64,000 bases of DNA from Candidatus Parcubacteria bacterium. Lineage in GTDB: Bacteria; Patescibacteriota; Minisyncoccia; Phycocordibacterales; JAACPR01. The stretch spans positions 1,252 to 65,251 of the forward strand of contig JBDLUA010000007.1 of the NCBI GenBank assembly GCA_039805545.1, read 5' to 3'. This document shows, piece after piece, positions 4,141-41,422 of the stretch; positions within the stretch are counted from its first letter, which is position 1; each line of letters starts with the position of its first letter. Below the pieces are notes generated by a model, which saw only the letters and a list, made by a program, of their open reading frames with translations, was not told where the DNA came from and ran no database searches. Both the position numbers and the translations under genes were made by a program.

Positions 4141-5250
4141 GTGAAACAAAATGCAAAGACTATATTTTTTTTAGGTTTACTTTCTATCATCATTGTTGTT
4201 TGTTTTCCTGTAATCAAAACACAAAAAACAGGAGGTGAAGCTGCGGTACGAGAATTTGCCTCTCTCACTAATATTTTAGAAAAAAGAAAAAATTATTTTA
4301 ATATTCCTCAAGATCGCACAGCAGATCGTCTGGTAAACATTTTGATTGTTCCGGGGCATGATGACGAACATTGGGGTGCACAGTTTAAAAAAACAAAAGA
4401 GGTTGAACTCAACCGGATTGTTGCACAAAAACTGTTTGACTATCTTTCGCGTGAAGAGGGAATCAACCCTGTCTTAGCAAGTGATACTAAGGGATATAAT
4501 CCAATTTTTGAAAATTACTTTAATCGAGAAAAAAGTGCTATTGAAGAATTCATTAAATCTTCAAAGGAGAATTTTTCAGAAAAAATTAACGAAGAAGATT
4601 TCAAAGATGTTGAAAAAAATTTTCATAATGTTGCCCCTGATGATGTTATCTATCGTCTATATGGAATCAATCAATGGGTCAATAATCAAAAATTTGATCT
4701 CGTTATTCATGTGCACTTTAATGATTACGCAGGAAGAAAATCTACTAAGGCAGGGAAGTATGATGGGTTTTCAATTTATACTCCTGGAAAACTTTTTTCA
4801 AATTATGATGTGAGCAGAAAATTGGCTGATAATGTTTTTAATGAATTAAAAAAAGTTCGACCTGTAAGCAGTCTGGAAGAGGAACAGATCGGAGTTATAG
4901 AAGACCATGAACTTATTGCACTTGGCGCAAATGAGAGTTTGGATGCGGGTTCAATTTTGATTGAGTACGGGTATATTTATGAACCTCTCTTTCTTGATAC
5001 GAAACTTCGAGACATTGCACTTGATTATTTTGCATACGCAACTTATTCAGGGATTAAAAAAATGTTAAACGAAAATCCTGCTTCTAAAGAAATTCAAAAT
5101 GTTCAAGTTTCAAAAAATAAAACCACTCAAGCAAATCTGATTTGGCAATTTAATCATGGACTTGAAGGGGCATATCCACCAAAAAATAAAACATTAAGAG
5201 ACTGTCCGATACTTGGGTATTTTGGAAAATGTAGTCAGATGGTTAAATAA
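4141..5250 (+). CDS. Membrane-anchored cell-wall amidase-like protein (Amidase_3-like fold?)
   Basis: N-terminal TM helix. PGHDDEHWGAQ and LVIHVHFNDYAG blocks resemble MurNAc-L-Ala amidase metal-site motifs. The match is weak. Confidence 0.4.
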   Translation: MKQNAKTIFFLGLLSIIIVVCFPVIKTQKTGGEAAVREFASLTNILEKRKNYFNIPQDRTADRLVNILIVPGHDDEHWGAQFKKTKEVELNRIVAQKLFDYLSREEGINPVLASDTKGYNPIFENYFNREKSAIEEFIKSSKENFSEKINEEDFKDVEKNFHNVAPDDVIYRLYGINQWVNNQKFDLVIHVHFNDYAGRKSTKAGKYDGFSIYTPGKLFSNYDVSRKLADNVFNELKKVRPVSSLEEEQIGVIEDHELIALGANESLDAGSILIEYGYIYEPLFLDTKLRDIALDYFAYATYSGIKKMLNENPASKEIQNVQVSKNKTTQANLIWQFNHGLEGAYPPKNKTLRDCPILGYFGKCSQMVK

Positions 5251-5285
5251 AAAAGGCGGCCCCGCAGGGGCCGCCATTTTTTATT
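5251..5285. terminator. Bidirectional intrinsic terminator GGCGGCCCCgcaGGGGCCGCC + T-tract
   Basis: Perfect GC hairpin flanked by A-run and T-run, between convergent genes. Confidence 0.7.
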
Positions 5286-6529
5286 TATATTTCTTTTAAC
5301 ACCTCTTGCACCTTCTCAAAATCACTCCAAGGCTCTTTGGTTCCATTTGCTCGCATTATATACGGGTCGGTTCCTTTCCCTGTGATAAGAACTACATCCC
5401 CGGGTTTTGCTTTTTGAATCGCTTTTTTGATTGCAGATTTTCTGTCCATATCTATTTCTAATTTTGCAGGGTCGATAGAATTTTTCATCTCGTTTACAAT
5501 TTTGAGAGGATCTTCATCGTAAGGATCTTCATCTGTTAAAAATACAAAGTCACAATATTGATTTGCTATCTCTGCCATCTTTGGTCGTTTCCAAGTATCT
5601 CGTCCACCACCAGTATTCCCAAGCACACATATTTTTCTTTTGTCTTTGAATGCAGAGTAGATTGCTTCAAGAGAATCTGGTGTATGAGCATAATCAACCA
5701 CAATACTTATCCCAAGATTATTAGGAACAAACTGTGCCCGACCTTTTACTTCTTCAAGTCGTGCAACACCTGCAATGATTTTTGAGTCTTCTATGTCAAA
5801 ACATTTTGCTGCATGATATGCTCCAAGAATATTTCGGATGTTGAATTCCCCTACAAGAGGAGATGAAAATGTTGAATTATTGTATTCAAACACAATAGGG
5901 GATGTTTGAACTATGTGTGCGTTAGAAAGGGAGAAAGAAACAGTCTTTCTATTTTTATTTCTTAAGATAAATTCATTTGAGTATTCATTATCTTTGTTTG
6001 TCACAAGCACTCCGTTTTTCTTTTTTAAATTATCTACAATTTTAAGTTTTGCTTCTTTGTATTTTTCAAAAGAGCCATGAGATTCTATATGTTCTGGAGA
6101 AAGGTTTGTAAAAACAAGTGTGTCTAGATAAATAAATTTATGTCGGAATTGTTTTGAGCCTTCAGATGTAATCTCAAGAATAACAATGTCACATTTTGCT
6201 TTTACTGCATCATATATAAACTTCTGCATAAAGAATCTTCCAGGCATAGACATTTTGTACTTGTTTGGCCGTTCTTGATCGCCAATCTTAAATCTAATTG
6301 TTCCTGCCATAGCAGTTTTGTATCCCGCTGTTTCAAAAATTGAGTTCAAAATTTCTACAGTAGAAGATTTTCCTTTTGTTCCTGTTACTCCAATTATTTT
6401 AATTTTTCGAGCAGGGAAGCCATATCGAATTGCCCCTGTGAGAGTAAGTGTGTAGTGATATATTGGTTGTCCAAGTTTATAAATTTTCTTTGGGATTAAT
6501 TTTTCTATTGTTCGTAGTATTTTGTCCAT
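5285..6529 (-). CDS. Mur ligase family protein (MurE-like, lacking the N-terminal domain)
   Basis: P-loop GVTGTKGKSST, DYAHTPDSLEA, GNTGGGRDTWKRP and C-terminal LITGKGTDPY are Mur ligase hallmarks. Confidence 0.55.
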   Translation of the reverse strand: MDKILRTIEKLIPKKIYKLGQPIYHYTLTLTGAIRYGFPARKIKIIGVTGTKGKSSTVEILNSIFETAGYKTAMAGTIRFKIGDQERPNKYKMSMPGRFFMQKFIYDAVKAKCDIVILEITSEGSKQFRHKFIYLDTLVFTNLSPEHIESHGSFEKYKEAKLKIVDNLKKKNGVLVTNKDNEYSNEFILRNKNRKTVSFSLSNAHIVQTSPIVFEYNNSTFSSPLVGEFNIRNILGAYHAAKCFDIEDSKIIAGVARLEEVKGRAQFVPNNLGISIVVDYAHTPDSLEAIYSAFKDKRKICVLGNTGGGRDTWKRPKMAEIANQYCDFVFLTDEDPYDEDPLKIVNEMKNSIDPAKLEIDMDRKSAIKKAIQKAKPGDVVLITGKGTDPYIMRANGTKEPWSDFEKVQEVLKEI

Positions 6530-6571
6530 GTCTTTTTGTGTGTATTATCTTGGGTTTGACCAAGGATTTCG

Positions 6572-7129
6572 TTATCTTGCTAAAATTTTTAATGCTTCTT
6601 TGATAATTTCATTTGAATTAAGTTCGTGCGAAAGTCCTGTTATTGCATCTCGAGCATCTTTTTTGGAATAGCCGAGAGCAATAAGTGCCTCCAAGGCATC
6701 TTGTTTATCTGTATTTGATTCAGTTTGGATGTGCTCAACTTTATCTTTGAGCGCTACAATAATTTTTTCGGCAGTCTTTAGCCCAATTCCTGTGAGCTTT
6801 TTAAAGTATTCTGCATCTCGCGAACCGATTCCTTCGAGAATAGTTTTTGGATTAGAAGAGTTGAGTATTGAGATTGCTGATTTTGGACCCACTCCATTTA
6901 CTTGTAATAAGAGTTCAAAAATTTCTTTCTCATCTACATATAAGAATCCATATAGTGTATGTGAATTTTCTTTTATATCTAAATGGGTGAGGAGTGTAAT
7001 TTCTTGTCCATGTCTAAGTGTTGAACATGTATACTGTGTTGCAATCGCTTTATATACCACTCCTTGTACATCAAGAAGTACTCCATCAATAACTATCTCA
7101 TCTACTATACCTTTAATTTTGACTATCAT
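6572..7129 (-). CDS. ruvA: Holliday junction branch-migration protein RuvA
   Basis: MIVKIKG start, HhH motifs LLQVNGVGPKSA and LTGIGLKTAEKI, and the C-terminal RuvB-binding domain. Confidence 0.85.
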   Translation of the reverse strand: MIVKIKGIVDEIVIDGVLLDVQGVVYKAIATQYTCSTLRHGQEITLLTHLDIKENSHTLYGFLYVDEKEIFELLLQVNGVGPKSAISILNSSNPKTILEGIGSRDAEYFKKLTGIGLKTAEKIIVALKDKVEHIQTESNTDKQDALEALIALGYSKKDARDAITGLSHELNSNEIIKEALKILAR

Positions 7130-14539: not shown

Positions 14540-14621
14540 GCGCAAGTGGTGAAATTGGTATACACGCACCCTTGAGGTGGGTGTGCCTTCGGGTGTGGAG
14601 GTTCAAGTCCTCTCTTGCGCA
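14540..14621 (+). tRNA. tRNA-Leu (anticodon GAG), long variable arm
   Basis: GCGCAAG acceptor, anticodon loop TTGAGGT, variable arm TGCCTTCGGGTGT, T-loop TTCAAGT. Followed by a long A/T-rich hairpin terminator at 14622-14670. Confidence 0.85.
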
Positions 14622-14746
14622 CTGAAAAATAAAGAGCCAAACACAAAGTGTTCGGCTCTTTATTTTTCAGGAAAGATTAACGAAGTAGGCTTTTCTTTGT
14701 ATTCGATTTGAGGTATTCTTGTTTTTGAAAACCTAAGGTAAAACCC

Positions 14747-15025
14747 ATGAAACGAAATGATAAGGATAAGTTCCTCCAAAAGATCGAGCGAGTTAGAAAT
14801 GCTGCCCTCAAACAGCTTCAAGAAATGGCGGCACTCTACAAACTTCAAGTCAAAGATGATCTTCGGTATCGCACCACCATTGAATTGGTTCATTGGTATT
14901 GCAACGATGCAAAGGAGTTTTCCCGAGAGAGATCGCTAGGGATGTTTGTCGGATTGATTTCTAACCTGCGCCGAATCATTGCCTCTCTTCCTGTTGTGGT
15001 CCTTGAGGACTATTACTCGACATGA
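14747..15025 (+). CDS. Hypothetical protein
   Basis: ORF between tRNA-Leu and tRNA-His. No motif recognised. Confidence 0.3.
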   Translation: MKRNDKDKFLQKIERVRNAALKQLQEMAALYKLQVKDDLRYRTTIELVHWYCNDAKEFSRERSLGMFVGLISNLRRIIASLPVVVLEDYYST

Positions 15026-15040
15026 GGATTGTTTTTTTCG

Positions 15041-15070
15041 AAAGGCGGCCCGAACGGGCCGCCTTTTCTC
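15041..15070. terminator. Intrinsic terminator GGCGGCCCgaacGGGCCGCC + T-tract
   Basis: GC hairpin plus TTTTCTCC. Confidence 0.7.
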
Positions 15071-15122
15071 CTGGACATTTCCCTATAAAATTAGTACTAT
15101 CTTGCTACACAGATGTGTATAT

Positions 15123-15195
15123 GGCGACTATGGTGTAACGGTTAACACAGCGGTCTGTGGATCCGCTGATTCGGGTTCGATTCCCGATAGCCGCC
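15123..15195 (+). tRNA. tRNA-His (anticodon GTG) with encoded G-1
   Basis: An extra 5' G pairs with discriminator C, the tRNA-His hallmark. Anticodon loop CTGTGGA, T-loop TTCGATT. There is one A-C mismatch in the acceptor stem. Confidence 0.8.
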
Positions 15196-15197
15196 CA

Positions 15198-15455
15198 TAA
15201 AAATAAAAGAGATGAATGCGTGAGCATTCATCTCTTTTATTTTAGGAAGGCTTCGGGAATCGAACGGCGGAGGCCCAGGGTCCCTGTGTCTGTGAAGTGA
15301 AACGAAACAGACCTGGGATGGCCGAGCCGCGACCAACGGTACTTAGTGAATGAGGAGTTTACGACGAAATGAACTTAGTAACTGTGGGTCGATTCCACAA
15401 ATATTTTTCCCACACTCTTCTCTAATTATTTTTTTCTTCTGCTATACTATATTCA
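15198..15455. repeat. tRNA-downstream structured block R2 (paralog of 12161-12425)
   Basis: Terminator hairpin, GC-rich nested hairpin CCCAGG...GTCTGT...ACAGAC...CTGGG, and the shared block GAGTTTACGAcGAAATGAACTTAGTAACTGTGGGtCGATTCC. Confidence 0.4.
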
Positions 15456-18194
15456 ATGGAAACAAAACAAAATTTTGAATCTCCTCAACTTACAGAAAAA
15501 ATTTCTAATCTTGAACAAGAACTTGCTTTTTTGCGTTCACAAATTATCGATAAAAAATCAGAGCAGGGCATAGAACAAAAGACTCAAGAAATAATTCAAA
15601 CTATTTCAAATCAAAAACAAGAAGTATATACAGACACTTTTCTTCATACACCAGAACAAACAGATGCAATCACACTTGATTTAAAACCAGAAGCACACGA
15701 CGAAACAATGGCTTCTCTTATTGAAATCATTAAGAAACACGGAATTATTAATGCGATAGAAGTTGTTGCAAAGCTTCAAGATGCTCATATTAATGATGAT
15801 TTTCATAGGTTTTTGGTGGAATATCTCAAAGAAGGATATCCTGTATTCAAAAAAGAATCAGAAGAGACACTTAGACCACTTAAAAGAACTTTGTTTGAAG
15901 TGTTGATTCCAAAAAAAGAACAAACAGGAGAAAATAATCAGGAACACATTCATAAAATGTATTCACTTATTTCAGGACTTCGATCAATTGCGGATTATTC
16001 TGACGAACATATTACGATTGAAATAACAAATCCTGTTGGAGAAAAACAGTTTTCTGTATATGTTTCTGTATATGAAAAAGTTCGAGATATGTTTGAAAAG
16101 CAAATGCTCTCGCTTTTTCCTTCAAGTAAACTTGCAGAACAAAAAAATGATTTTAATATTTTTGTCCCTCTAGGTTCACATTTTGTCTATTCTGCAAAGC
16201 TAAAAGAACTTCCGGTTAAGCCCCTTAAGACAAGTGAGGAATTTCAAGTTGATCCACTTAATACTCTTGTTGGTGTGTTTACAAAACTTGAACAAATGGA
16301 TGATGCTGCGTGTGTACAGTTTGTAATTCGACCAGGAAAAGGATTTTATACAAAAAACTATGCAAAAGCTTTGCCAAAAGTTGAAAAAGGAGAAAAACCA
16401 GATGAGATATACATGAAAGATAAGATGTCTGACAAACTTATCTATGGGACGAACAAGATCTTAAAAGGAATTATTGAAATTGCCGCGTCGCTTCAATCAG
16501 AATCTTCATCTAAGAGTGAAGATAAAAAAATCGATCAGTTTCTCGTTGAAGGACTTCGACAAAAAATTAAGCATGAAATTTATTCTGTAAATATTCGAGT
16601 AGTAACATCGAGTAAAGAGGAGAACAGAGCAAAAGTAATTGCATCTGAAATCAGATCTTCATTTGATCAATTTTCTAATCCGACAGGGAACAGAATTGAG
16701 TGGGTTGAGCACAAAGGAAGTATTAAGAAAGAGTTGAAGAAATTTATCTATCGACAATTTGATATGGAATATGAAATGCCACTTAATATTTCTGAAATCT
16801 CAACAATAATTCATTTTCCTGATGAGAGCAAAGAGACCACTGCACAGTTTAAGCGTCTTGGTATGACTTCTGCTCCTGCACCCTTTAACCTTGAACAAAA
16901 TCAAGGTGTGCTTCTTGGTACAAATGAGCATGCGGGTGAGATTACTAATATTCGGATGCAAAATATGGATAGACTTCGACATATGTATGTAATTGGACAA
17001 ACAGGAACAGGTAAGACAACTCTTTTGAAAAATATGATTATTCAAGATATCAAAAATGGAGAAGGTGTATGTATGATTGACCCACATGGTTCTGATATTC
17101 AAGAAATTCTTGCTGCTATTCCACAAGAACGGCTCGAGGATGTAATTTATTTTGATCCAAGTTACACAGAGCGTCCAATGGGTCTTAATATGCTTGAGTA
17201 TGATGTTCGGTTTCCTGAACAAAAAACTTTTGTAGTGAACGAAATGATGAGTATCTTTAATAAATTGTTTGATATGAAAGTTGCTGGAGGTCCTATGTTT
17301 GAACAGTATTTTCGAAATGCAACAATGCTTGTAATTGATGATCCTGAATCTGGGAATACTCTTCTTGATGTATCTCGGGTGCTTTCTGATCAAAACTTTA
17401 GAAATATGAAGATTTCTAAATGTAAAAATCCAACAGTAGTACAGTTCTGGACTGAGATTGCTTCAAAGGCTGGAGGAGAAGCTTCACTTGCAAATATTGT
17501 TCCATATATCACAAGTAAGTTTGATGTGTTTCTTTCAAACGATATTATGCGACCTGTTATCGCACAAAAGGAATCAAGTTTTGATTTCAGAAAAATAATG
17601 GACGAAAAAAAGATTTTACTCGTAAATCTTGCAAAAGGAAGACTTGGGGACATTAACTCAAATCTTATTGGTCTTATTATTGTAGGAAAATTGTTGATGG
17701 CTGCATTATCTCGGGTCGATTCTCTTGGAAAAGATTTTCCTTCATTTTATTTATATATCGATGAATTCCAAAATATTACAACTGATTCTATTTCGGCAAT
17801 ATTATCTGAAGCCCGAAAGTATAAATTAAGTCTATGTGTTGCTCATCAGTTTATTGCCCAATTACAAGAGAGTATTCGTGATGCTGTGTTTGGAAACGTA
17901 GGAAGTGTTGCTGTATTTAGGGTTGGTTCTGAAGATGCAAAATTTCTTGAATCACAATTTTCACCACGGTTTGTTCAAAAAGATATTATGAATATCGAGA
18001 ACTTTAATTTCTATTTAAAAATGCTTAACGAAGGTGTTCCTGTAGAACCTTTTAATGTAAAACTTCCATCAAAACAAGAGTTTGATCTTAGTAGAGTGGA
18101 AGATATTAAGCAACTCTCATATTTGAAGTATGGGAAAGACAGAAGTGAAGTAGAAGAAGAGATTATGAAAAATTTGAGGAAGGAGACTCTTTAG
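15456..18194 (+). CDS. Large P-loop ATPase of the VirB4/TraC-HerA/FtsK superfamily with an N-terminal coiled-coil/unknown domain
   Basis: Walker A YVIGQTGTGKTT near aa ~515, Walker B LYIDEFQN, and ARKYKLSLCVAHQ...VFGNVGSVAVFRVG resembling the VirB4/DUF87 C-terminal motifs. No N-terminal TM helices. Confidence 0.55.
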   Translation: METKQNFESPQLTEKISNLEQELAFLRSQIIDKKSEQGIEQKTQEIIQTISNQKQEVYTDTFLHTPEQTDAITLDLKPEAHDETMASLIEIIKKHGIINAIEVVAKLQDAHINDDFHRFLVEYLKEGYPVFKKESEETLRPLKRTLFEVLIPKKEQTGENNQEHIHKMYSLISGLRSIADYSDEHITIEITNPVGEKQFSVYVSVYEKVRDMFEKQMLSLFPSSKLAEQKNDFNIFVPLGSHFVYSAKLKELPVKPLKTSEEFQVDPLNTLVGVFTKLEQMDDAACVQFVIRPGKGFYTKNYAKALPKVEKGEKPDEIYMKDKMSDKLIYGTNKILKGIIEIAASLQSESSSKSEDKKIDQFLVEGLRQKIKHEIYSVNIRVVTSSKEENRAKVIASEIRSSFDQFSNPTGNRIEWVEHKGSIKKELKKFIYRQFDMEYEMPLNISEISTIIHFPDESKETTAQFKRLGMTSAPAPFNLEQNQGVLLGTNEHAGEITNIRMQNMDRLRHMYVIGQTGTGKTTLLKNMIIQDIKNGEGVCMIDPHGSDIQEILAAIPQERLEDVIYFDPSYTERPMGLNMLEYDVRFPEQKTFVVNEMMSIFNKLFDMKVAGGPMFEQYFRNATMLVIDDPESGNTLLDVSRVLSDQNFRNMKISKCKNPTVVQFWTEIASKAGGEASLANIVPYITSKFDVFLSNDIMRPVIAQKESSFDFRKIMDEKKILLVNLAKGRLGDINSNLIGLIIVGKLLMAALSRVDSLGKDFPSFYLYIDEFQNITTDSISAILSEARKYKLSLCVAHQFIAQLQESIRDAVFGNVGSVAVFRVGSEDAKFLESQFSPRFVQKDIMNIENFNFYLKMLNEGVPVEPFNVKLPSKQEFDLSRVEDIKQLSYLKYGKDRSEVEEEIMKNLRKETL

Positions 18195-18336
18195 CCTTGT
18201 GTATAATTAGAAAAAGTGGTATTATGGTTTTGTAAGTAACAAAACTATCGTGTCTTTGGGTAAGCTGTCGTGTGATGGTCCAACAAGAGAACTATATGTG
18301 TCGTGCTTACACTTTAATAGTGTTAAAGAACCTTAA

Positions 18337-18657
18337 ATGGATACAAACAACAAACGGCTTTTCGTAGGAGGAATTCCTTACCGAACAACTGAACAAGATT
18401 TACAAGACGCTTTCTCAAAAGCAGGAGCAGTAACATCTGCTCGAATCATCAAAGAACGAGAAACAGGACGATCAAAAGGATTTGGTTTCGTAGAAATGGA
18501 AACTGAAGAAGCTGCACAAGCGGCAATCGAAATGTGGAACGGAAAAGATTTTGATGGACGAGAACTTATTGTAAACATTGCTCGAGCTGAAGAACGACGA
18601 CCATCAAACGGTGGAAACGGCGGATTCGGAGGAGGAAATCGAGAATGGAGACGATAA
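18337..18657 (+). CDS. RRM-type RNA-binding protein with Gly-rich tail
   Basis: RNP-2 LFVGGI and RNP-1 KGFGFVEM motifs. The C-terminus is GGNGGFGGGNR. Confidence 0.8.
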   Translation: MDTNNKRLFVGGIPYRTTEQDLQDAFSKAGAVTSARIIKERETGRSKGFGFVEMETEEAAQAAIEMWNGKDFDGRELIVNIARAEERRPSNGGNGGFGGGNREWRR

Positions 18658-18675
18658 TCTAAATATAGATAACAA

Positions 18676-18710
18676 AAAAGCAGGTGGCCCAAAGGGCCAC
18701 CTGCTTTTTT
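18676..18710. terminator. Intrinsic terminator GCAGGTGGCCCaaaGGGCCACCTGC + T-tract
   Basis: Hairpin plus TTTTTTG. Confidence 0.7.
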
Positions 18711-18757
18711 GTTATTAAAATAATGTAAAAAAATATTTTTTATATATAATAGATAAT

Positions 18758-21709
18758 ATGAAGAAATTATTTTTGTTTTTATCTTTTATTATATTTATTT
18801 TTTGTATCAAGCATGCCGGTGCTCAAGTTGAAGAAATAGTTCTCTACTCTAAAGATGGTTTTAGTATTAAGACACAGTCGTTTGTGTTGGATGAAAAAGG
18901 TAACACATCTTTGGTCAAAAACTCAGATTTATATGTAGGTTTTAAAGATGAGGGTGTTGATTTTGAATATGATGAACCAAAAATTTCTTTTGAAATAAAA
19001 GATTCAAATAATAACTCCATAAGAAAAATAAATACACCTACATCCAAAAGAAATGGTGAGAGTCCAGATCTTCAAAAATATTTAGAAGACAATAAAGAAT
19101 ATTTTGATCAAGTAAGATTAGATAAAAATAATATAATAGTAAAAACCCCTGTTGATTTTGCTGGTGGCGAATATACATTGATTTTTAAGGTCAAATATGC
19201 GGAAAAAGAAAAAACTATGGAGCATAAAGTTATTGTTTCTAAATCTGCCTACTCTTTCTCTAATTTTAAACTTTCTTTAGAAGATGATGATTTTTTGGCT
19301 GCCATTGAATATAAAGCGCCAATTGATGTCGAAGAGGATGTAATAATTGACGTTTCTTTGAATAAGGAAGGAATAGAAATCTTTAAAAAAGAGTTTCCTA
19401 AAAAGATGTATGAGGAAGGAACAATTGTAATTGATGAGAAAGTAGAGAATATTAAGAAAGATTCAGATAAAGCGCTTTTTACTTTTAAAATAAAGGATAA
19501 AACAGGGGAGGTTGTATACGAGACTACTCAAAAAGTAAACTCAGAACACGCAAATAATATGTATAAATATATTTATATTGGAGCAATTTTAATTTTATTA
19601 ACACTTGCTTTTGTTGTGATAAAAAAAGTAAAGTCTAAAAAAATAAAAATTCCTACAGTAGTTTTCATTTTTATGCTTACAAGTATTTCTCTTACAAGAG
19701 TGTATGCGGTTGAGAAGTGTGGTGGTGTCAATCAGCCAGAAGATTTTTGCTTTGAAGATAAAATTGTTACATATGTGTGTAAAAATACATATACGTGTGA
19801 TGTTGAAGATGCTCGGTTAAAAAAGTATTTTTCTACTGGAAATATTGTAAATATTCAAACTGAGCAAGAGTGGGTTGGTCCGGTATCTGCAACAATTAAT
19901 ATTTGTAATAATATTGGGCAAACACTCAACACGGGAGACGCTTTTTATGTAATAAGTGATTCAAATGGATCTAGTTGGCAACGAAAAAGATATCACGTAT
20001 TCAGATTTGTTAAAGGTACAGAAAATACTGTTACATTTGATCCTGGAGGAGATAAAAGAAATGTTAACTATGCCACATATAATGGAGGGTGTAGTGTAAC
20101 AGTGTATTCAAGATATAGTGGAGATTCATCAAACTTTAAGAGCGCCGATACAAAGATTATTGAAACAGGAAAAGTAACCCCAAGTATGTGTAAGTCAAAA
20201 GCTGTCAATGAGGATACTTTTGAAAGTAATGCATCCATGCTCGACAGAGATGATTGTACTCAATCTGAGCTTCGAGATACCTGGATTGCTGGAAGTGTAT
20301 ATTTTAATCCTATCTATAGTTCAAATTCTTGGGCAGAAAAAACTGTAAATGTATGTAATTATCTTGGATATACAGAGAACACAATACCTGAAGGAAAGGC
20401 ATTCTATGCGCTCATGGAACAAACTAGTTCTTGGACAATGATTGATTATCCGGTGTTTAGGTATTTTTTTGGTACACCAGGAACAAATTATTATGAAGGG
20501 AATATAACTGTTGAATGGGCAAATAAAAATACATATAGATTTGATGGATACAAAGAAAATGTCCCTACTATGAAATATGATGGCGAATGTACAATTACAT
20601 TTAGGCTTTATAATAGAGGAGAGGATACTGACTCGTGGACTCATGGATATAAATTGATTGAATTAGGAATGGTTGAAGATGCAACTTGTCGAGACGAACA
20701 TATTGTTGAACACTCAACCGCGACATTTGATGGGGCATATCGGTATTCTGGAAGAGGATTAACAGATGGTGTGGTTGAAGATTGGACCAAACGAGCGGGT
20801 GGAAAGTATTCTGTTATGGCCCCATTTATGAGAAGTCTTTCTGATTGTGTCGGTACTTCACAGTGTGACTTAAATGGTGAATGGATAAAATCCTACACTA
20901 ATACTGCATGCCCACCCCCTACTTGCGATACAAGTCATACTGTTGGTGCTGATGCTGGTTGTAGTGTAAATAATAAAGAACAAACATGGCAATGTACAAA
21001 TGGAAGTTGGACAGTTTCTGAAGGGTCTAACTTGTGCACAACTTTGGATTGTACGGTTGATAATACTGAGGTTGAATCAGGTGATCCTGTTACGTATACT
21101 GCAACTTTAATTACAAACGCTTTTTATAAGTGGTGGACCACACCTACTTCTCAAATTTTAAATGAGAATGCAAGAACATATACTGCAACGTATACAAACG
21201 GCGGAACTTATAATCGAATAGTAACCGCAACCAACGGAACAACTGTACAAAGTAAATCTTGTCCTTCAGTTGAAGTAAATATTTCATGTAATGGAACAAA
21301 ACCAAATGATTCTGCTTGTGTAAATGGTTCTCAGACTATATACAATTCAACATGTGATTCTGATGGAAGTTGGGGATATCAAGTTGTGGCTTGTGGTAAT
21401 GCTACAACGACCGATGACGGTACACCAACTTTAACAAGGTTTAGCTTTAGTCCAAATATGGCAAGCGGAACAACTTGTCCACTCTATGTTCAGGTAGATA
21501 ATGCACAATTATGTAAAATAAAAAATCGATCAATCTATACGCAATTACAAGATACAGGAACTTCTCCAACGGAATTTTCTGTAAACGGTTATTCGTATCC
21601 AGTTGGTACATATACGCTTGAGTGTGCTGCATCTTCAACTAATCCATCATATGTATCTATGAATGCGCAGGCATCTTGTTATACGAATCCAATTATTAAA
21701 GAAAACTAA
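18758..21709 (+). CDS. Large secreted/surface protein with internal TM segments and tandem Cys-containing domains
   Basis: N-terminal signal peptide. A hydrophobic helix at ~aa 265 is followed by a second signal-peptide-like segment (KKIKIPTVVFIFMLTSISLTRVYA). Then two ~115-aa repeats and Cys-rich modules. Confidence 0.5.
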   Translation: MKKLFLFLSFIIFIFCIKHAGAQVEEIVLYSKDGFSIKTQSFVLDEKGNTSLVKNSDLYVGFKDEGVDFEYDEPKISFEIKDSNNNSIRKINTPTSKRNGESPDLQKYLEDNKEYFDQVRLDKNNIIVKTPVDFAGGEYTLIFKVKYAEKEKTMEHKVIVSKSAYSFSNFKLSLEDDDFLAAIEYKAPIDVEEDVIIDVSLNKEGIEIFKKEFPKKMYEEGTIVIDEKVENIKKDSDKALFTFKIKDKTGEVVYETTQKVNSEHANNMYKYIYIGAILILLTLAFVVIKKVKSKKIKIPTVVFIFMLTSISLTRVYAVEKCGGVNQPEDFCFEDKIVTYVCKNTYTCDVEDARLKKYFSTGNIVNIQTEQEWVGPVSATINICNNIGQTLNTGDAFYVISDSNGSSWQRKRYHVFRFVKGTENTVTFDPGGDKRNVNYATYNGGCSVTVYSRYSGDSSNFKSADTKIIETGKVTPSMCKSKAVNEDTFESNASMLDRDDCTQSELRDTWIAGSVYFNPIYSSNSWAEKTVNVCNYLGYTENTIPEGKAFYALMEQTSSWTMIDYPVFRYFFGTPGTNYYEGNITVEWANKNTYRFDGYKENVPTMKYDGECTITFRLYNRGEDTDSWTHGYKLIELGMVEDATCRDEHIVEHSTATFDGAYRYSGRGLTDGVVEDWTKRAGGKYSVMAPFMRSLSDCVGTSQCDLNGEWIKSYTNTACPPPTCDTSHTVGADAGCSVNNKEQTWQCTNGSWTVSEGSNLCTTLDCTVDNTEVESGDPVTYTATLITNAFYKWWTTPTSQILNENARTYTATYTNGGTYNRIVTATNGTTVQSKSCPSVEVNISCNGTKPNDSACVNGSQTIYNSTCDSDGSWGYQVVACGNATTTDDGTPTLTRFSFSPNMASGTTCPLYVQVDNAQLCKIKNRSIYTQLQDTGTSPTEFSVNGYSYPVGTYTLECAASSTNPSYVSMNAQASCYTNPIIKEN

Positions 21710-21712
21710 ATT

Positions 21713-21750
21713 AAAAGGCGCGGCCCCTCCGGGGCCGCGCCTTTTTAAAA
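21713..21750. terminator. Intrinsic terminator GGCGCGGCCCCtccGGGGCCGCGCC + T-tract
   Basis: Hairpin plus TTTTTAAAA. Confidence 0.7.
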
Positions 21751-21770
21751 AACTATGCTAGTATAATTAC

Positions 21771-22802
21771 ATGAAAATAATTTCTAATTTTCTTCATAAA
21801 AATGAAAAATGGCTAACACCGATTGTTCTTCTTGGGGGATTTATATTAGATACCTTAACCTTACGAAGATCAGATTTACTAGCAGAAAATGTTTTGTTGG
21901 CTGTTTACTTTATTCTTGTTTTGTTTGGCCTTTTAATTTGGCACAAGTTTGAACAAAAGAGAATAAAGGATGTTGATCAATTAGGATTTCAATCTTTTAT
22001 TTTTCTTGTAATGCAATTTGCATTCGGAGGTCTTTTCAGTTCCCTCACCGTTTTTTATGTTAAGAGCGCATCATTTTATGCAAGTTGGCCATTCATACTC
22101 CTTTTGTTTGGAGGAATGATTGCTACCGAATATTTTAAGAAACATTTTACGCTTTTTCTTGTACAAATTGGTACACTTTACATGCTTTTGTTTACATATT
22201 TAATTCTTTTGGTACCCCTTGTAGTTCGATCAATTAATAGCTGGGTATTTGTTTTAAGCGGAATACTCAGTCTTACAGCTATTTTTGTATATATTCTTAT
22301 ATTTAAATTATATATTCCAAAACTGACCAAAGGGAAAGATATTTATTTTGTGTATGTTATTGGAGGAATTTTTGCCTTAATAAATAGTATGTATTTTACA
22401 AATATAATTCCGCCGATCCCGCTTTCATTAAAGGACTCCGGTATTTATCAGAGGGTTGAAAAAAATGCTGGAACATATGTTTTTTCTGGATTTGAAAACA
22501 GGTTTTCTTTTAGAAATTTTAAACAAGAATATTTTATTCCAAGAGGAACTCCTGTTTATTTTTATACGTCCGTATATGCACCTGTTAAATTTAATCAAAA
22601 GATTGTTCATGAATGGCAAAAGAAGAATACTAAAGATGAATGGGTTACTATATTAAAAATAGATTTTCCTATATATGGAGGAAATACAAATGGATATCGA
22701 GGATATACGGTAAGTAATAAAATTACAGAAGGGGAGTATAAAATTCTTGTAGAAACTGATAGTGGACAAGTTCTTGGTGTAAAAAAATTTAGTGTTAAAT
22801 AA
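21771..22802 (+). CDS. Polytopic membrane protein (about 6 TM) with C-terminal soluble beta-rich domain
   Basis: Hydrophobicity pattern only. No motif recognised. Confidence 0.45.
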   Translation: MKIISNFLHKNEKWLTPIVLLGGFILDTLTLRRSDLLAENVLLAVYFILVLFGLLIWHKFEQKRIKDVDQLGFQSFIFLVMQFAFGGLFSSLTVFYVKSASFYASWPFILLLFGGMIATEYFKKHFTLFLVQIGTLYMLLFTYLILLVPLVVRSINSWVFVLSGILSLTAIFVYILIFKLYIPKLTKGKDIYFVYVIGGIFALINSMYFTNIIPPIPLSLKDSGIYQRVEKNAGTYVFSGFENRFSFRNFKQEYFIPRGTPVYFYTSVYAPVKFNQKIVHEWQKKNTKDEWVTILKIDFPIYGGNTNGYRGYTVSNKITEGEYKILVETDSGQVLGVKKFSVK

Positions 22803-23057
22803 AAGGCCCTTAAGGGCCTTTTATTTATCCTTGTCGAGCTTTTCGTCGAGGATCCTTTTTATTAATTCGATAGAGCTTTCCTCGTCGTCGTACGAGTTGG
22901 TCTCCTGCCTTTTCTTTCTTGATTGATGACTTTACTTTCATGATGTGTGTATTTGTAGCATAAAAAGACCTATTTGTAAAATAGGGCAAGATGTTATAAT
23001 GAAAAATAAGACTTATTAGAGTATAGTTAGTCGTTTTATAAAATTTAATAATAATTT

Positions 23058-23846
23058 ATGGATAAACAATATAAAGATATCGGTTTTAAGGTTGGAGTGG
23101 TTGTTTTTGGACTTCTTGCATTGTTTTTAATTTCAAAAACAGTAGGAGAAGTTATTTCTTGGAGTAAGGATGAAATCTACCCAACAAAAACAATAACTAT
23201 TACTTCAGAGGGTGAAGCGCTTGCGATTGCAGATATAGCTTCTTTCTCTTTTACTGTAGATGAAGAAGGGGCAACAAGTGATGAGGCACAGAAGAAATCA
23301 ACAGATAAAATTAATAAAGCTATTGAATATTTAAAATCTAATGCTGTCGAAGAAAAAGATATTAAAACAGAAAACTATTCTATTTATCCTAAATATGAAT
23401 CAGTAAATCCTTGTTTTGTTGGGGATTGTCCTCCTCCATCTGAACCAAAAATTATTGGATACAATGTGTCACAAACTATTAGAGTAAAGGTTAGAGATAC
23501 ACAAAATACAGGAAAATTCCTCAGCGAATTAACAAAATATCAAATAAATAATATTTCAGGTATTTCATTTACAATTGATGATACAGATGCGTTGTATGAT
23601 CTTGCACGAAAAGATGCTGTAGAAAAAGCACAAGTAAAGGCAACTGCACTTGCAAAAGATTTAAATGTAAAACTCGGAGATGTGATTTCGTTTAGTGAGG
23701 ATAATTCACAATATTATCCAAATGACGCATATGGAATGGGTGGTGCAGAAATGGGAGTTTCTATGAAAACTGCTGTAGCGCCAACAATTCCTAAAGGAGA
23801 AAACAAATATACTACACGAGTATATGTGACATACGAACTTAAATAA
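23058..23846 (+). CDS. SIMPL/DUF541-family (BP26-like) membrane-anchored protein
   Basis: N-terminal TM. The central pattern (ITSEGEALAIADIASFSFTV...ENYSIYPKY) fits the SIMPL domain. Confidence 0.55.
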   Translation: MDKQYKDIGFKVGVVVFGLLALFLISKTVGEVISWSKDEIYPTKTITITSEGEALAIADIASFSFTVDEEGATSDEAQKKSTDKINKAIEYLKSNAVEEKDIKTENYSIYPKYESVNPCFVGDCPPPSEPKIIGYNVSQTIRVKVRDTQNTGKFLSELTKYQINNISGISFTIDDTDALYDLARKDAVEKAQVKATALAKDLNVKLGDVISFSEDNSQYYPNDAYGMGGAEMGVSMKTAVAPTIPKGENKYTTRVYVTYELK

Positions 23847-36406: not shown

Positions 36407-39400
36407 ATGTCAGACACATCAAACAACGAACCAAATCTAAGTGCGGTTGCACAGAAGGAGAAGGAGATACTAGAGTTTTGGAATACAAATCAAATTTTTA
36501 AAAAATCTCTAGAAAAAGATTCACCAAAGGGGGAGTTTACTTTTTATGATGGTCCTCCTTTTGCAACAGGACTTCCTCACTATGGGCATATTCTCGCCGG
36601 AACAATGAAGGATGTGATTCCTCGATATAAGACAATGCTTGGATATCATGTTCGAAGACAGTGGGGTTGGGATTGTCATGGGCTTCCAATTGAGAAGATG
36701 ATTCAGTCTGAACATAATCTTACTACCAAAAAAGACATTGAAGAATTTGGTATAAAAAAATTTAACCAAGCTGCAAAGGCAAGTGTGTTTAAGTACGATA
36801 AAGAATGGAAACATACCGTTCCGCTTACTGGGCGATTTGTTGATATGGATACTTCGTATACAACAATGGATCCTTCTTTTACAAAATCAGTATGGTGGGG
36901 ATTTGGTGAAATTTATAAAAAAGGTTTGGTGTATGAAAGTTTCAAAGTAATGCATGTATCTCCACTTCTTGAAACAACGCTTTCTAACTTTGAAGTTAAT
37001 CAGGGATATCGAGATATCACAGATATCTCTGCAACAGTTAAATTTGAATTAGTTGATGAGCCAAATACATTTGTACTTGCATGGACTACAACTCCTTGGA
37101 CACTCCCTGGAAACGTTGCGCTCGCAGTAGGGAATGAAGTTATATATGTGAAACTTAAATTCGAAGATTCGTTTTACATTCTTGCAAAAGATTTGGTTGA
37201 AAAGAATTTTAAAGAAAAACAAATTGAAATCTCAGAAGAATATCTTGGAAGCGAACTTGTCGGAAAATCATATAAGCCAGTCTTTGAGTATTATGTAAAA
37301 GACAAGTCGCTTACAAATTATGAGAATGGATGGAAAATGTATCCTGCTGATTTTGTAACAACAACTGATGGAACAGGAATCGTACATATTGCTCCTGCCT
37401 TTGGAGAAGATGACCTCAATCTTGGCAAACAATTCAATCTTCCTTTTGTTCAACATGTAAAAATGAACGGAGAAATAAAAGAGGAGGTTACAGATCTTGC
37501 AGGACGACAAGCAAAGCCAAAGCATGATCCACAAGAGACTGATATTGAAGTAATTAAACTGCTTGCGCATAGAGGAACTCTTTTTGCAAAAGAAAAATAC
37601 ACTCACTCATATCCACATTGTTGGCGAACAGATGCGCCGCTTCTTAACTTCGCAACCTCATCATGGTTTATTAAAGTTACAGATCTTAAGGATCAACTTA
37701 TCAAGAATAACAACACTATTAAATGGGTTCCTGAAGCGGTTGGAACAGGACGATTTGGTAATTGGCTCAAGGAGGCAAAGGACTGGGCAATTTCTCGTTC
37801 ACGATTTTGGGGTACACCAATTCCAATTTGGAAATCAGAAGATAGGAAGGATGTAGAGGTGCTTTCATCTCTTGAACACATAAAAGAAAAAACAAAATCA
37901 ACCAACACCTATTTGGTTCTTCGACATGGAGAAGCTGAACATAACATTTCAAAGACAACTTCTGATACAAATGAAGTGCCTAGTCATCTAACACAAAAAG
38001 GCAAAGAACATATCTCACAAGTTGCACAAACTTTGAAAAATAAAAAAATAGATTTTATTTTTGTTTCACCTCTTATGCGAGCGCAAGAGACTGCAGAGAT
38101 TGTAAAAGAATGGTGTGGTCTTAATTCTGATCAAATCATCACAGACGAACGACTCAAAGAAGTTCAAACAGGATTCAATGGAAAGAGTAATGATGAATAT
38201 AAAAACTTTTTCAAAAATCTTGAAGATAGATATGAACATAAACATGAGTTGGGGGAGTCACTCCTTGATATAAAAAAGCGAGTAGGAGATTTTATCTATG
38301 ATATTGATTCAAAATATTCAAATAAAAATATTCTTATTATTTCGCATGAATACCCAATCTGGATGTTGATGTCTGTTAAGGATGGATTGAATAAAACACA
38401 AACACTTGCACTAAAAGAAATGGAAAGAGAGTTTGTTAAGACTGGTGATGTTGAAGAATTAGATTTTGCAAAGATTCCTCATGACGATAACTTTGAACTT
38501 GATTTTCATCGGCCTTATATCGATGAAATTACCTTTGTTCAAAATGGAAAAACATTTAGACGAATCGAAGATGTGTTTGATGGATGGATTGATTCAGGTG
38601 CAATGCCATTTGCAAGTGCAGGATATCCGTATTCAAAAAATGTATTCAAGCCAGGAAACTTTTTCTTCAAAGATAAAGGATTTCCAGCGGACTTTATTGC
38701 GGAAGGACTTGATCAAACACGAGGGTGGTTTTATACATTACTCGTATGGTCAACAGCACTCTTTGGAAAGGCTCCATTTAAACATGTAATTGTAAATGGA
38801 CTTGTACTTGCTGAGGATGGAAAGAAGATGGCTAAGTCTTTAAGGAATTATCCAGCTGTTGAAGATGTTCTATATAAGTATGGCGCAGATGCACTTCGAT
38901 ATTATTTGATGAGTTCAACTGCAGTAAAGGCAGATGACTTGAGATTTTCAGAGAAAGGAGTAGACGAGTCGATGAAGAAGATTGTAATGCGGCTTGATAA
39001 TGTGATTACATTCTATGAAATGTATAAGGATGATTCTGTTGTGCCAAGTAATTCAAGCTCACACATATTGGATAAATGGATTATTGCTCGACTCGCACAG
39101 ACAACTTCAGAAATTACAAAAGCACTTGAAGGATACGAACTTGATAAGGCTTCACGACCACTTATGGATTTTGTAGATGATCTCTCTACCTGGTACCTTC
39201 GAAGAAGTCGAGATAGATTGAAGTCAGATGGCGAAGATAAAAATCTTGCACTTGCAACACTCAGGTATTCACTTCGAGAATTTGCAAAAGTGATGGCACC
39301 AATTATGCCATTTAAGGCAGAGGACACCTATCTTCGAACACGAGAGATGAATGAAGTAGAAAGTGTTCATCTCTGTGCATGGCCTACAAATAATTCATTT

Positions 39401-39892
39401 GATGAAAGTATTCTTGTTGGAATGAAAGAAGTGCGAGATGTTGTAACTAAAGCACTTGAAGTTCGAGCTAAGGAAGCAATTAAGGTTCGACAGCCAATTC
39501 AAACTCTTGAAGTTAAAATTGCACTTGCTGATGAGTATAAAGATATTATTAAGGACGAAGTGAATGTAAAAGATATTGAGTTTAATGCACAACTTGAAAC
39601 TGATGTGTGGCTTGATACTACAATTACTCCAGAACTCAAAGAAGAGGGAGATGCACGAGAACTAATTCGAGCATTACAAGATCTTCGAAAGTCATCAGAA
39701 CTCTCTCCAGAAGATACAATCGTAGTACATCTTGCATGTTCAAGTGAATTCAAAACTATTGTAGAAAAATATTCTGACTTGATTCAATCAGTAACTCGAA
39801 CTCAAGAAATTATTTTTGAAAGTGAGTTACCTAGTGAGGAGATTGTATTGAATGAGTTTAAGGTGAAGGTGGTGGTGAGGAAGGTGGGGTAG
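36407..39892 (+). CDS. ileS: Isoleucyl-tRNA synthetase with an inserted histidine-phosphatase (PGAM-like) domain
   Basis: HYGH (HIGH), editing domain, and KMAKS (KMSKS). About 190 aa between PIWKSEDRK and DFHRPYIDEITF carry the RHGE, SPLMRAQETA and ISHE motifs of the histidine phosphatase superfamily. Total length is 1161 aa. Confidence 0.9.
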   Translation: MSDTSNNEPNLSAVAQKEKEILEFWNTNQIFKKSLEKDSPKGEFTFYDGPPFATGLPHYGHILAGTMKDVIPRYKTMLGYHVRRQWGWDCHGLPIEKMIQSEHNLTTKKDIEEFGIKKFNQAAKASVFKYDKEWKHTVPLTGRFVDMDTSYTTMDPSFTKSVWWGFGEIYKKGLVYESFKVMHVSPLLETTLSNFEVNQGYRDITDISATVKFELVDEPNTFVLAWTTTPWTLPGNVALAVGNEVIYVKLKFEDSFYILAKDLVEKNFKEKQIEISEEYLGSELVGKSYKPVFEYYVKDKSLTNYENGWKMYPADFVTTTDGTGIVHIAPAFGEDDLNLGKQFNLPFVQHVKMNGEIKEEVTDLAGRQAKPKHDPQETDIEVIKLLAHRGTLFAKEKYTHSYPHCWRTDAPLLNFATSSWFIKVTDLKDQLIKNNNTIKWVPEAVGTGRFGNWLKEAKDWAISRSRFWGTPIPIWKSEDRKDVEVLSSLEHIKEKTKSTNTYLVLRHGEAEHNISKTTSDTNEVPSHLTQKGKEHISQVAQTLKNKKIDFIFVSPLMRAQETAEIVKEWCGLNSDQIITDERLKEVQTGFNGKSNDEYKNFFKNLEDRYEHKHELGESLLDIKKRVGDFIYDIDSKYSNKNILIISHEYPIWMLMSVKDGLNKTQTLALKEMEREFVKTGDVEELDFAKIPHDDNFELDFHRPYIDEITFVQNGKTFRRIEDVFDGWIDSGAMPFASAGYPYSKNVFKPGNFFFKDKGFPADFIAEGLDQTRGWFYTLLVWSTALFGKAPFKHVIVNGLVLAEDGKKMAKSLRNYPAVEDVLYKYGADALRYYLMSSTAVKADDLRFSEKGVDESMKKIVMRLDNVITFYEMYKDDSVVPSNSSSHILDKWIIARLAQTTSEITKALEGYELDKASRPLMDFVDDLSTWYLRRSRDRLKSDGEDKNLALATLRYSLREFAKVMAPIMPFKAEDTYLRTREMNEVESVHLCAWPTNNSFDESILVGMKEVRDVVTKALEVRAKEAIKVRQPIQTLEVKIALADEYKDIIKDEVNVKDIEFNAQLETDVWLDTTITPELKEEGDARELIRALQDLRKSSELSPEDTIVVHLACSSEFKTIVEKYSDLIQSVTRTQEIIFESELPSEEIVLNEFKVKVVVRKVG

Positions 39893-41234: not shown

Positions 41235-41422
41235 TTAGCACGTCATCCCTGTTCTCAATTACGTCATCCTCGCGAAGGCGAGGATCCAGTCTGTATCAAA
41301 GAAATATAATTAGCAAAAGGCAAACCCTTTGGGTTTGCCTTTTGCAGTCCTGGATCCTCGCCTTCGCGAGGATGACGTACTAATGTTGCCCTCGAGCAAA
41401 TGTTAGGATGACATGCTAATTG
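41235..41422. repeat. MITE-like GC-rich hairpin repeat, copy 2 (composite, with internal terminator-like hairpin)
   Basis: TTAGCACGTCATCC...CGTCATCCTCGCGAAGGCGAGGATCCAG / AAAAGGCAAACCCtttGGGTTTGCCTTTTGC / CTGGATCCTCGCCTTCGCGAGGATGACGTACTAA, plus a partial extra end GGATGACATGCTAATTG. Confidence 0.6.

Follow-up and report, generated by a model that had tools for sequence, protein, structure and literature searches.

Type IV secretion systems (T4SSs) of ultra-small epibiotic bacteria are essential for growth on their hosts. Here we analyzed a gene for a 912-aa ATPase of the DUF8128 family in a 64,000 nt stretch of a Candidatus Parcubacteria bacterium (contig JBDLUA010000007.1), the whole of which is hereafter called the window, and compared its product with the motor proteins of such systems. 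The closest described set comes from a survey whose text was available in part (Quinonero-Coronel et al., 2025, PMC12102498): across 2,918 Patescibacteria genomes, it counted 5,713 homologues of the VirD4-type T4SS coupling protein (T4CP), of which only 148 are located near virB4. According to the same source, Patescibacteria have a separate clade of genuine VirB4 and a virB4 cluster near dnaA/dnaN, and monoderm conjugation systems are the presumed origin of their T4SS. In S. epibionticum (Southlakia epibionticum), t4cp is reported to be non-essential while other T4SS genes are essential, and exaptation of T4CP homologues was raised as a possibility. The window ATPase resembles these homologues in phylum, annotation class and rarity near virB4, and probably belongs to the same set. 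The VirB4-like N-domain and the long and short forms reported below are not described in the available portions of that article and of a 2025 T4SS review (PMC12857230), nor are phage relatives in the available portion of the former. As context only and without a link to the ATPase gene, host-RNA feeding has been proposed in this phylum, its uptake route being unresolved (2026 preprint, 10.64898/2026.06.21.733656).

Taken as a whole, the locus is best explained as a housekeeping stretch that carries a conserved DUF8128 ATPase with a proposed role in T4SS coupling, a view that we hold with slightly better than even confidence.

Architecture of the ATPase

The ATPase gene spans 15456-18194 (coordinates are those of the window, on the plus strand unless stated otherwise) and encodes a long form of the family without a transmembrane (TM) helix, as judged from the open reading frame (ORF), its homologues, a hydropathy scan and AlphaFold2 (AF2) predictions, the last of which underlie all structures of the protein discussed here. 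The full-length model had a predicted local distance difference test (pLDDT) value of 82.9, and a separate model of aa 1-478 had a value of 79.7. A preliminary description of this DNA had proposed an N-terminal region of ~500 aa, coiled coil or of unknown type, followed by a P-loop motor of the FtsK/HerA/VirB4 type. The motor was confirmed by Pfam, NCBIfam and structure comparison, but the N-terminal ~470 aa proved to consist of a helical bundle (aa ~19-142) and an alpha/beta domain of VirB4 fold.

The helical N-terminal extension (aa 1-142; 15456-15881; helices at 19-142 in the AF2 model) is specific to the long form and carries the conserved motif KGI.NA....NPH..DDFHRFLV. It is followed by the DUF8128 (PF26449) alpha/beta domain (aa ~143-470; 15882-16865), whose predicted fold is that of the VirB4 N-terminal domain, and by a RecA-like motor domain of the VirB4/VirD4/HerA clade (aa ~478-912; 16887-18191). 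The assignment to PF26449, which is named DUF8128, was taken from the precomputed annotation at the N-terminus of nearly all 120 listed homologues. The window protein has the features that define the family, a DUF8128 N-domain followed by a P-loop motor and homology over the full length.

The catalytic motifs were located in an alignment of 74 homologues. Six of the eight residues of Walker A, GQTGTGKT (aa 514-521; 16995-17018), are invariant (G514, Q515, T516, G517, G519 and K520), as are D769, E770 and F771 in Walker B, YLYIDEFQN (aa 765-773; 17748-17774), and A796, H797 and Q798 of the AHQ sensor. An all-alpha insertion in the motor (aa 589-716; 17220-17603), recognized from the AF2 secondary structure and a Pfam TrwB_AAD_bind match, presumably sits at the position of the all-alpha domain of TrwB, as inferred from the known TrwB fold. 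Comparison of the motor with known structures gave figures of 25.2 for the VirB4 C-terminal domain (4ag5), 24.2 for the DptH/DndH C-terminal domain, 23.6 for HerA, 23.4 for TrwB, 21.1 for DotL, 20.9 for Cag-beta and 17.3 for FtsK.

The preliminary description had also suggested a remote-homology search of the N-terminal part. The structural match list of the modeled N-terminal part includes no RecA-like proteins, and therefore it is the N-terminal domain of VirB4 that is matched. Independently, the nine best Foldseek matches of this part were all TrwK chains (E 1e-5 to 3e-4). These comparisons show, at the level of the predicted structure, that the N-terminal domain has the VirB4 N-terminal fold. 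TrsD of pGO1, which has been reported to resemble the VirB4 N-domain, was tried as a further relative and showed no similarity to the N-domain profile.

At the sequence level, Pfam matches to TraG-D_C (aa 765-829), DUF87 and TrwB_AAD_bind were marginal but above threshold, and those of NCBIfam to SXT_TraD (4e-13) and the CD1115 VirD4-like family (2e-9; aa 487-827) were far sub-threshold. Among the profiles named in the preliminary description as a check, DUF87 was therefore matched, whereas CagE_TrbE_VirB gave no match in Pfam; AAA_10 gave none either. NCBIfam VirB4_plasma scored 29.8 bits against a cut-off of 590, confined to the Walker A region. Searches of PDB sequences with the single protein and with the 74-sequence profile returned only Walker-A-level matches, to TrwB (E 5e-4) and DotL (E 0.02). 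Against the pGO1 prototypes, hhalign gave a probability of 67% for TrsE (VirB4), spanning the whole C-terminal domain, and of 39% for TrsK (VirD4) over 135 columns. Simple hydropathy scans, used for all TM calls, detected no N-terminal TM segment in the window ATPase or in any full-length close homologue (≥760 aa) among the 120 matches listed.

The protein is thus like VirB4 (TrwK of R388, TrsE of pGO1) in its two-domain, TM-less architecture and in the extent of the TrsE match, but differs in that VirB4 family profiles were matched only at Walker A, far below cut-off, and in its extra ~140-aa helical N-extension. Moreover, it never adjoins VirB3, VirB6, VirB8 or TrsD, either among the scanned ORFs (those of the segment under study, its immediate flanks and ten of the largest from the rest of the window) or across 80 + 3 related loci. 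With the VirD4/TraD/TraG coupling proteins (TrwB, DotL, Cag-beta and TrsK), it shares the TraG-D_C, TrwB_AAD_bind, DUF87 and NCBIfam TraD/CD1115 matches; its only sequence-level PDB matches belong to this group, and source databases name its homologues 'VirD4' or 'TraM recognition domain' proteins. It differs from them in the lack of an N-terminal TM anchor, in the ~330-aa VirB4-like domain before the motor, in NCBIfam scores that are all far below the cut-offs, and in the lack of a relaxase or T4SS neighborhood in the loci scanned. Because the modeled architecture is VirB4-like (a VirB4-type N-domain, then the motor, and no TM segment) but the motor sequence leans to the coupling proteins, and because the profile matches are weak, we regard the ATPase as forming a branch of its own within the VirB4/VirD4 clade, outside both the VirB4 and the VirD4 family.

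Long and short forms and their relatives

When one genome per GTDB species was scanned, a relative of the ATPase turned up in at least 597 of the species, and the best 80 loci of these are all from Patescibacteria metagenome-assembled genomes (MAGs). Close homologues are 45-97% identical and almost all full-length (120 listed of 166 found). The ratio of nonsynonymous to synonymous substitution rates (dN/dS) is 0.09-0.10 against the two closest relatives, L001 (80% identity) and L016 (78%), with dS near saturation, which points to strong purifying selection on the ATPase. In about 30 of the 80 loci (~50% identity), the ATPase gene lies between L18-S5-L15-SecY-Adk-Map on one side and Ndk, a membrane protein, a beta-CASP RNase (RNase-J-like) and L20-IF3 on the other. 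Among the best 80 loci, L001 and L016 alone preserve the order ATPase-RRM-DUF2914-SIMPL-FolD-NusG. The preliminary description had named conservation of the ATPase as a core gene with constant neighbors as a finding that would refute its own reading, and this largely applies: the conservation was borne out, whereas the neighbors are not constant.

No T4SS, pilin, relaxase, integrase or defense genes were found beside the ATPase in the best 80 loci, and a second VirB4/VirD4-like ATPase was not seen among its neighbors in related loci. The family profile found no relatives in the viral contigs of IMG/VR. Since it occurs in at least 597 species and, in the loci compared, in housekeeping contexts, with no viral relatives in IMG/VR and with a low dN/dS, the ATPase gene has the behavior of a core-like gene of the chromosome that is passed on vertically. 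Two contigs of the MAG CALRBL01 (L017 and L023) each carry a long-form copy, 66-69% identical at the DNA level, which reflects either paralogy or bin contamination. Several third-party annotation (TPA) assemblies are labeled 'Saccharibacteria', and these labels are not confirmed.

A phmmer search with the N-terminal 475 aa retrieved 678 cluster representatives within Patescibacteria, which fall into two forms. Long forms of ~900-940 aa have no TM segment and carry the ~140-aa helical extension. Short forms of ~790-840 aa have a single predicted TM helix directly before DUF8128 in nine of ten distinct representatives; the window ATPase is 36% identical to one of them, P0249, from aa 142 onward. 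Three short-form loci were found in housekeeping contexts (FtsQ, PMT, DnaX, RmuC and GAPDH), and RmuC directly follows one of the short-form genes. In each of the three, a helical ORF of 129-162 aa abuts or overlaps the ATPase start (L088, 9479-9967; L089, 7615-8004; L090, 7574-7999). For two of these small ORFs, hhalign gave a match to the extension of the long form (E ~1e-3), with which they have the motif G[ILV]..A[IV]...NP[HY].[ILV]D..H..L[VI] in common, while the third gave no match. This comparison weakly suggests that the long form arose by fusion of the small partner to the ATPase, with loss of the TM helix. Neighbors of the short-form gene in L088 were tried as candidate partners and have no homologues in the window or the 80 loci.

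Beyond Patescibacteria, homologues covering the DUF8128 domain and the motor were identified by tblastn and hhalign. PHROG 5156 (function unknown) matches aa 141-906 of the ATPase (E 6e-86). Full-length homologues are encoded by Bacillus phage SPO1 (gp27.4, 906 aa; hhalign probability 99.4%), where the gene is located among replication and nucleotide-metabolism genes, by Bacillus phage G (gp156; 100%, E 4e-38), and by a Shouchella clausii plasmid (an 883-aa 'DUF87' protein; 99.9%). Directly upstream of phage G gp156 lies gp155 (P-loop_TraG, AAA_10; VirB4-like; both genes at 3162-7304 of L082), so that this jumbo phage carries a predicted pair of T4SS-type motors. A Replic_Relax gene, checked with Pfam, comes immediately after the Shouchella gene, and 2-4 kb downstream of the latter are genes for conjugal transfer and for an 837-aa ATP-binding protein. 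The three proteins are similar in size to the window ATPase and likewise have no N-terminal TM anchor, but they are only ~23-25% identical to it and are devoid of the helical N-extension. Their genes are on mobile elements, that of phage G with a VirB4-like neighbor and that of the plasmid with Replic_Relax and conjugation genes nearby, whereas the window gene is chromosomal and alone. The T4CP of pLS20 was rejected as a family member; it is a canonical 2-TM protein of a different family. A literature search for PF26449 found no paper.

The surrounding segment and its genes

The preliminary description had placed the ATPase directly downstream of tRNA-His, which it called a classic point of island insertion, and had regarded the four genes after it, the RRM gene included, as envelope-associated. 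All five ORFs were recovered, and Pfam and hydropathy agreed with the RRM, SIMPL, polytopic and Cys-rich calls. The GC content of the window is ~35% overall and stays at 0.32-0.39 throughout the region with no shift, and the best protein matches of window genes are labeled Candidatus Parcubacteria. The scanned ORFs encode housekeeping and envelope proteins, including PolA, a Mur ligase, SHMT, ArgRS, IleRS, a class II aminoacyl-tRNA synthetase, an M16 peptidase, a canonical FtsK (54102-56315), FolD, NusG, CTP synthase and ribosomal proteins; RNA genes of the window comprise seven tRNAs and the start of a 23S rRNA. As had been stated before, no integrase or relaxase is present among these ORFs, and neither is VirB4, VirB6 or a pilin. 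No direct repeats that could bound an island were found in the window, and a search for another copy of the tRNA-His 3′ end found none there at ≤3 mismatches. With flat GC, no att repeat, no integrase or relaxase in the scanned ORFs, separate terminators and rpmJ inside, the segment is shown to be an ordinary housekeeping stretch of a Parcubacteria/Paceibacteria chromosome, neither an island nor a five-gene system, and tRNA-His is not an integration site here.

tRNA-His (GTG; 15124-15196; ARAGORN and Rfam) lies upstream of the ATPase gene as described before, but the two do not abut: the ATPase start is 259 bp downstream, behind a terminator-like hairpin with a T-run read from the sequence (15200-15243) and a GC-rich, moderately structured intergenic segment outside the ATPase gene (15244-15400, not assigned to a strand; fold z-score -2.9 on the plus strand). 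This segment has a 79% identical copy after tRNA-Leu in L016 (4366-4500) and is absent from L001. Within it are motifs resembling a T-loop (GTTCGATTCCC on the minus and GGGTCGATTCCAC on the plus strand), and it may represent the remnant of a tRNA or else a small RNA. Rfam searches of the whole window, and permissive ones of 14600-15470, yielded only tRNAs and the 23S rRNA start and left 15244-15400 unmatched. The order tRNA-Leu/tRNA-His/ATPase is also present in L001. Between tRNA-Leu and tRNA-His in the window is a 92-aa ORF (14747-15025) with its own hairpin downstream; the stretch has no DNA match in L001 or L016, and the ORF no PHROG match. In L016, where ARAGORN found no tRNA-His, a 589-aa ORF (4500-6763) between the GC-rich element and the ATPase replaces the tRNA-His and ~260 bp of the window.

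Downstream of the ATPase, a 106-aa RRM RNA-binding protein is encoded at 18337-18657 (RRM_1, E 2e-25; NCBIfam Rbp_regulator, 96.7 bits). Its gene has an extended -10-like box upstream and a terminator with a 20-bp stem (18671-18713), and by these signals it is predicted to be its own transcription unit. As a partner of the ATPase the RRM protein was rejected: an RRM gene lies within 7 kb in five of the 80 loci, two of which are the closest relatives, and this is about chance by a rough estimate.

The next gene (18758-21709) encodes a 983-aa surface protein, as seen from translation and hydropathy, with a signal peptide, an ectodomain of ~245 aa, a TM hairpin (aa 268-318; two hydrophobic segments besides the signal peptide) and a Cys-rich ectodomain of ~660 aa. 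It has 29 Cys residues, and the Cys-rich part contains an internal duplication of ~248 aa (DNA repeat D1, spacing 744 nt). NCBIfam gave a weak match to an LPxTATN C-terminal sorting signal (aa 265-291, E 0.003). A terminator follows at 21713-21745. Only ten homologues were found among 5.8 billion proteins, four of them full-length with the same architecture, and two are encoded at unrelated housekeeping sites (TsaE/SmpB and EF-G/L10). In DNA alignments, 18679-21770 is replaced by ~50 bp in L001 and by ~100 bp in L016. Since this segment alone is missing from the two relatives between colinear flanks, the alignments show the 983-aa gene to be a lineage-specific single-gene insertion unrelated to the ATPase.

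A 343-aa polytopic membrane protein with C-terminal DUF2914 (21771-22802; Pfam and hydropathy) is encoded by a gene with its own -10-like box and a terminator (22803-22822). Between it and the SIMPL gene lies rpmJ on the minus strand (22825-22941), which the preliminary description had overlooked, encoding a 38-aa ribosomal protein L36 of the Cys-less type (ORF; Pfam Ribosomal_L36, E 1.4e-13 over the full profile). The last gene (23058-23846) encodes a 262-aa SIMPL/DUF541 protein (Pfam E 9e-48) with an N-terminal TM segment or signal anchor by hydropathy. In all, -10-like boxes precede the RRM, 983-aa, DUF2914 and SIMPL genes, and strong, G+C-rich terminator hairpins with a T-run follow the first three. 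The four downstream genes are not partners of the ATPase: their co-occurrence with it is confined to the two closest relatives, three of them have terminators of their own, and one is the separate 983-aa indel.

Elsewhere in the window, IleRS (36407-39892; 1161 aa; tRNA-synt_1 and Anticodon_1) has a His_Phos_1 domain in the middle of the synthetase (aa 504-658, E 2e-28), an unusual insertion or fusion of a histidine-phosphatase domain. The window also encodes two more large proteins of envelope type, one of 655 aa with a DUF11 repeat (41413-43380) and one of 575 aa with a PG_binding_1 domain (57976-59703).

Proposed role and alternative explanations

The comparisons above show that the ATPase combines a P-loop motor of the ring-translocase clade, with its motifs intact, and an N-domain of VirB4 type, that it is strongly conserved and that it has membrane-anchored sister forms. 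By analogy with its structural relatives, the ATPase would assemble into a ring and may spend ATP on delivering or pumping a polymer, nucleic acid being the likeliest, on the cytoplasmic side of the membrane. The N-terminal helical module of the long form might substitute for the small helical partner and the membrane anchor of the short forms. We tentatively propose, as its most likely role, that this ring motor could serve as an orphan coupling-type ATPase of a patescibacterial T4SS encoded elsewhere in the genome. Several points weigh against this proposal. Neither the scanned ORFs of the window nor the 80 + 3 related loci, viewed with flanks of up to 10 kb per side, include a T4SS gene near the ATPase, and the link to a T4SS is therefore one of guilt by homology only. 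The context itself was read with a crude ORF caller plus clustering in the best 80 loci only, with family identities checked with Pfam. Sequence likeness to bona fide VirB4 (TrsE, 67%) and VirD4 (TrsK, 39%; TrwB, E 5e-4) is weak, and the idea of a fusion draws on two matches at E ~1e-3 and fails for the third small ORF. The t4cp homologue reported as dispensable in S. epibionticum (PMC12102498) would, if of the DUF8128 type, also speak against it, and the phage homologues cannot serve a T4SS in any obvious way.

The main alternative is a T4SS-independent housekeeping translocase that, like FtsK or HerA, would act on the cell's own DNA or RNA in segregation, repair or replication restart, or on imported nucleic acid. 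In its favor, the housekeeping contexts are constant and none includes a T4SS, RmuC directly follows a short-form gene, the genes around SPO1 gp27.4 serve replication and nucleotide metabolism, HerA and FtsK match the predicted structure strongly, and purifying selection is strong. Yet the genome already has its canonical FtsK, the N-domain resembles that of VirB4 in particular, whose fold is known from secretion machines in membranes, the short forms are predicted to be anchored in the membrane, and the plasmid homologue lies beside relaxase-like and conjugation genes; we regard such a translocase as possible, though less likely than not. A motor of this clade could also belong to an anti-phage defense system of the HerA/DptH/mad8 type with the N-domain as sensor or effector; the preliminary description had suggested a HerA-type module with the N-domain as effector. 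PADLOC, run on all five proteins, did report mad8 (E 8e-15, aa 507-810) and weak HerA matches for the ATPase, but only on the generic motor, and nothing for its neighbors. Unlike HerA, DptH (DndH) and the mad8 of MADS, the ATPase has no partner nuclease, Sir2, effector or modification genes in the scanned ORFs or related loci, and its N-domain is of the VirB4 type, with no HAS-barrel, nuclease or Sir2 signature recognized. Together with a near-ubiquitous vertical distribution and a dN/dS of ~0.09, unlike patchy defense genes, this makes a defense role very improbable.

The idea of an island at tRNA-His carrying a minimal T4SS or pilus-like system, made up of the ATPase and the envelope proteins, took its appeal from the 259 bp between the tRNA and the ATPase, from the envelope proteins encoded downstream and from the T4SS-related motor itself. 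It met with no integrase in the scanned ORFs, no att repeat and no composition shift, and no T4SS or pilin gene adjoins the ATPase in the scanned ORFs or related loci. The junction between tRNA and ATPase, like the genes on either side, keeps its order in relatives, where a test of presence or absence of the 15.2-23.9 kb block in L001 and L016 found only the 983-aa gene to be variable, and homologues of that gene stand alone elsewhere. The genes have separate terminators with rpmJ among them and are not kept with the ATPase beyond the two closest relatives, and we give this idea next to no weight. We hold it to be just as improbable that the gene is a domesticated, functionless T4CP/VirB4 gene left by a decaying conjugative element or prophage. 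Homologues do occur on Bacillota plasmids and phages, and the survey presumes an origin of the patescibacterial T4SS in monoderm conjugation systems (PMC12102498), but the ORFs are intact and full-length in hundreds of species, with invariant catalytic motifs and a dN/dS of ~0.09.

Extending the proposal of an orphan coupling-type ATPase, it is conceivable, though we consider it unlikely, that DUF8128 ATPases constitute a third, unrecognized branch of T4SS motors that would combine a VirB4 architecture with a coupling-protein-like engine and exist either split, as a small helical protein with a TM-anchored ATPase, or in fused soluble form; in Paceibacteria, such a core gene would power or gate the transfer of host nucleic acid, DNA or the RNA of the proposed feeding, via the essential T4SS or another channel.

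Because the role of the ATPase is a proposal and its gene class has already been reported in bulk, the gain is modest. A reading as a mobile or defense system is not worth pursuing, as the island, the minimal T4SS and the defense module do not hold. The ATPase is instead a single member of a large family, catalogued but uncharacterized, that is conserved among ultra-small epibiotic bacteria, and its VirB4-like N-domain, TM-anchored sisters and phage and plasmid relatives offer handles on the movement of macromolecules in these organisms.

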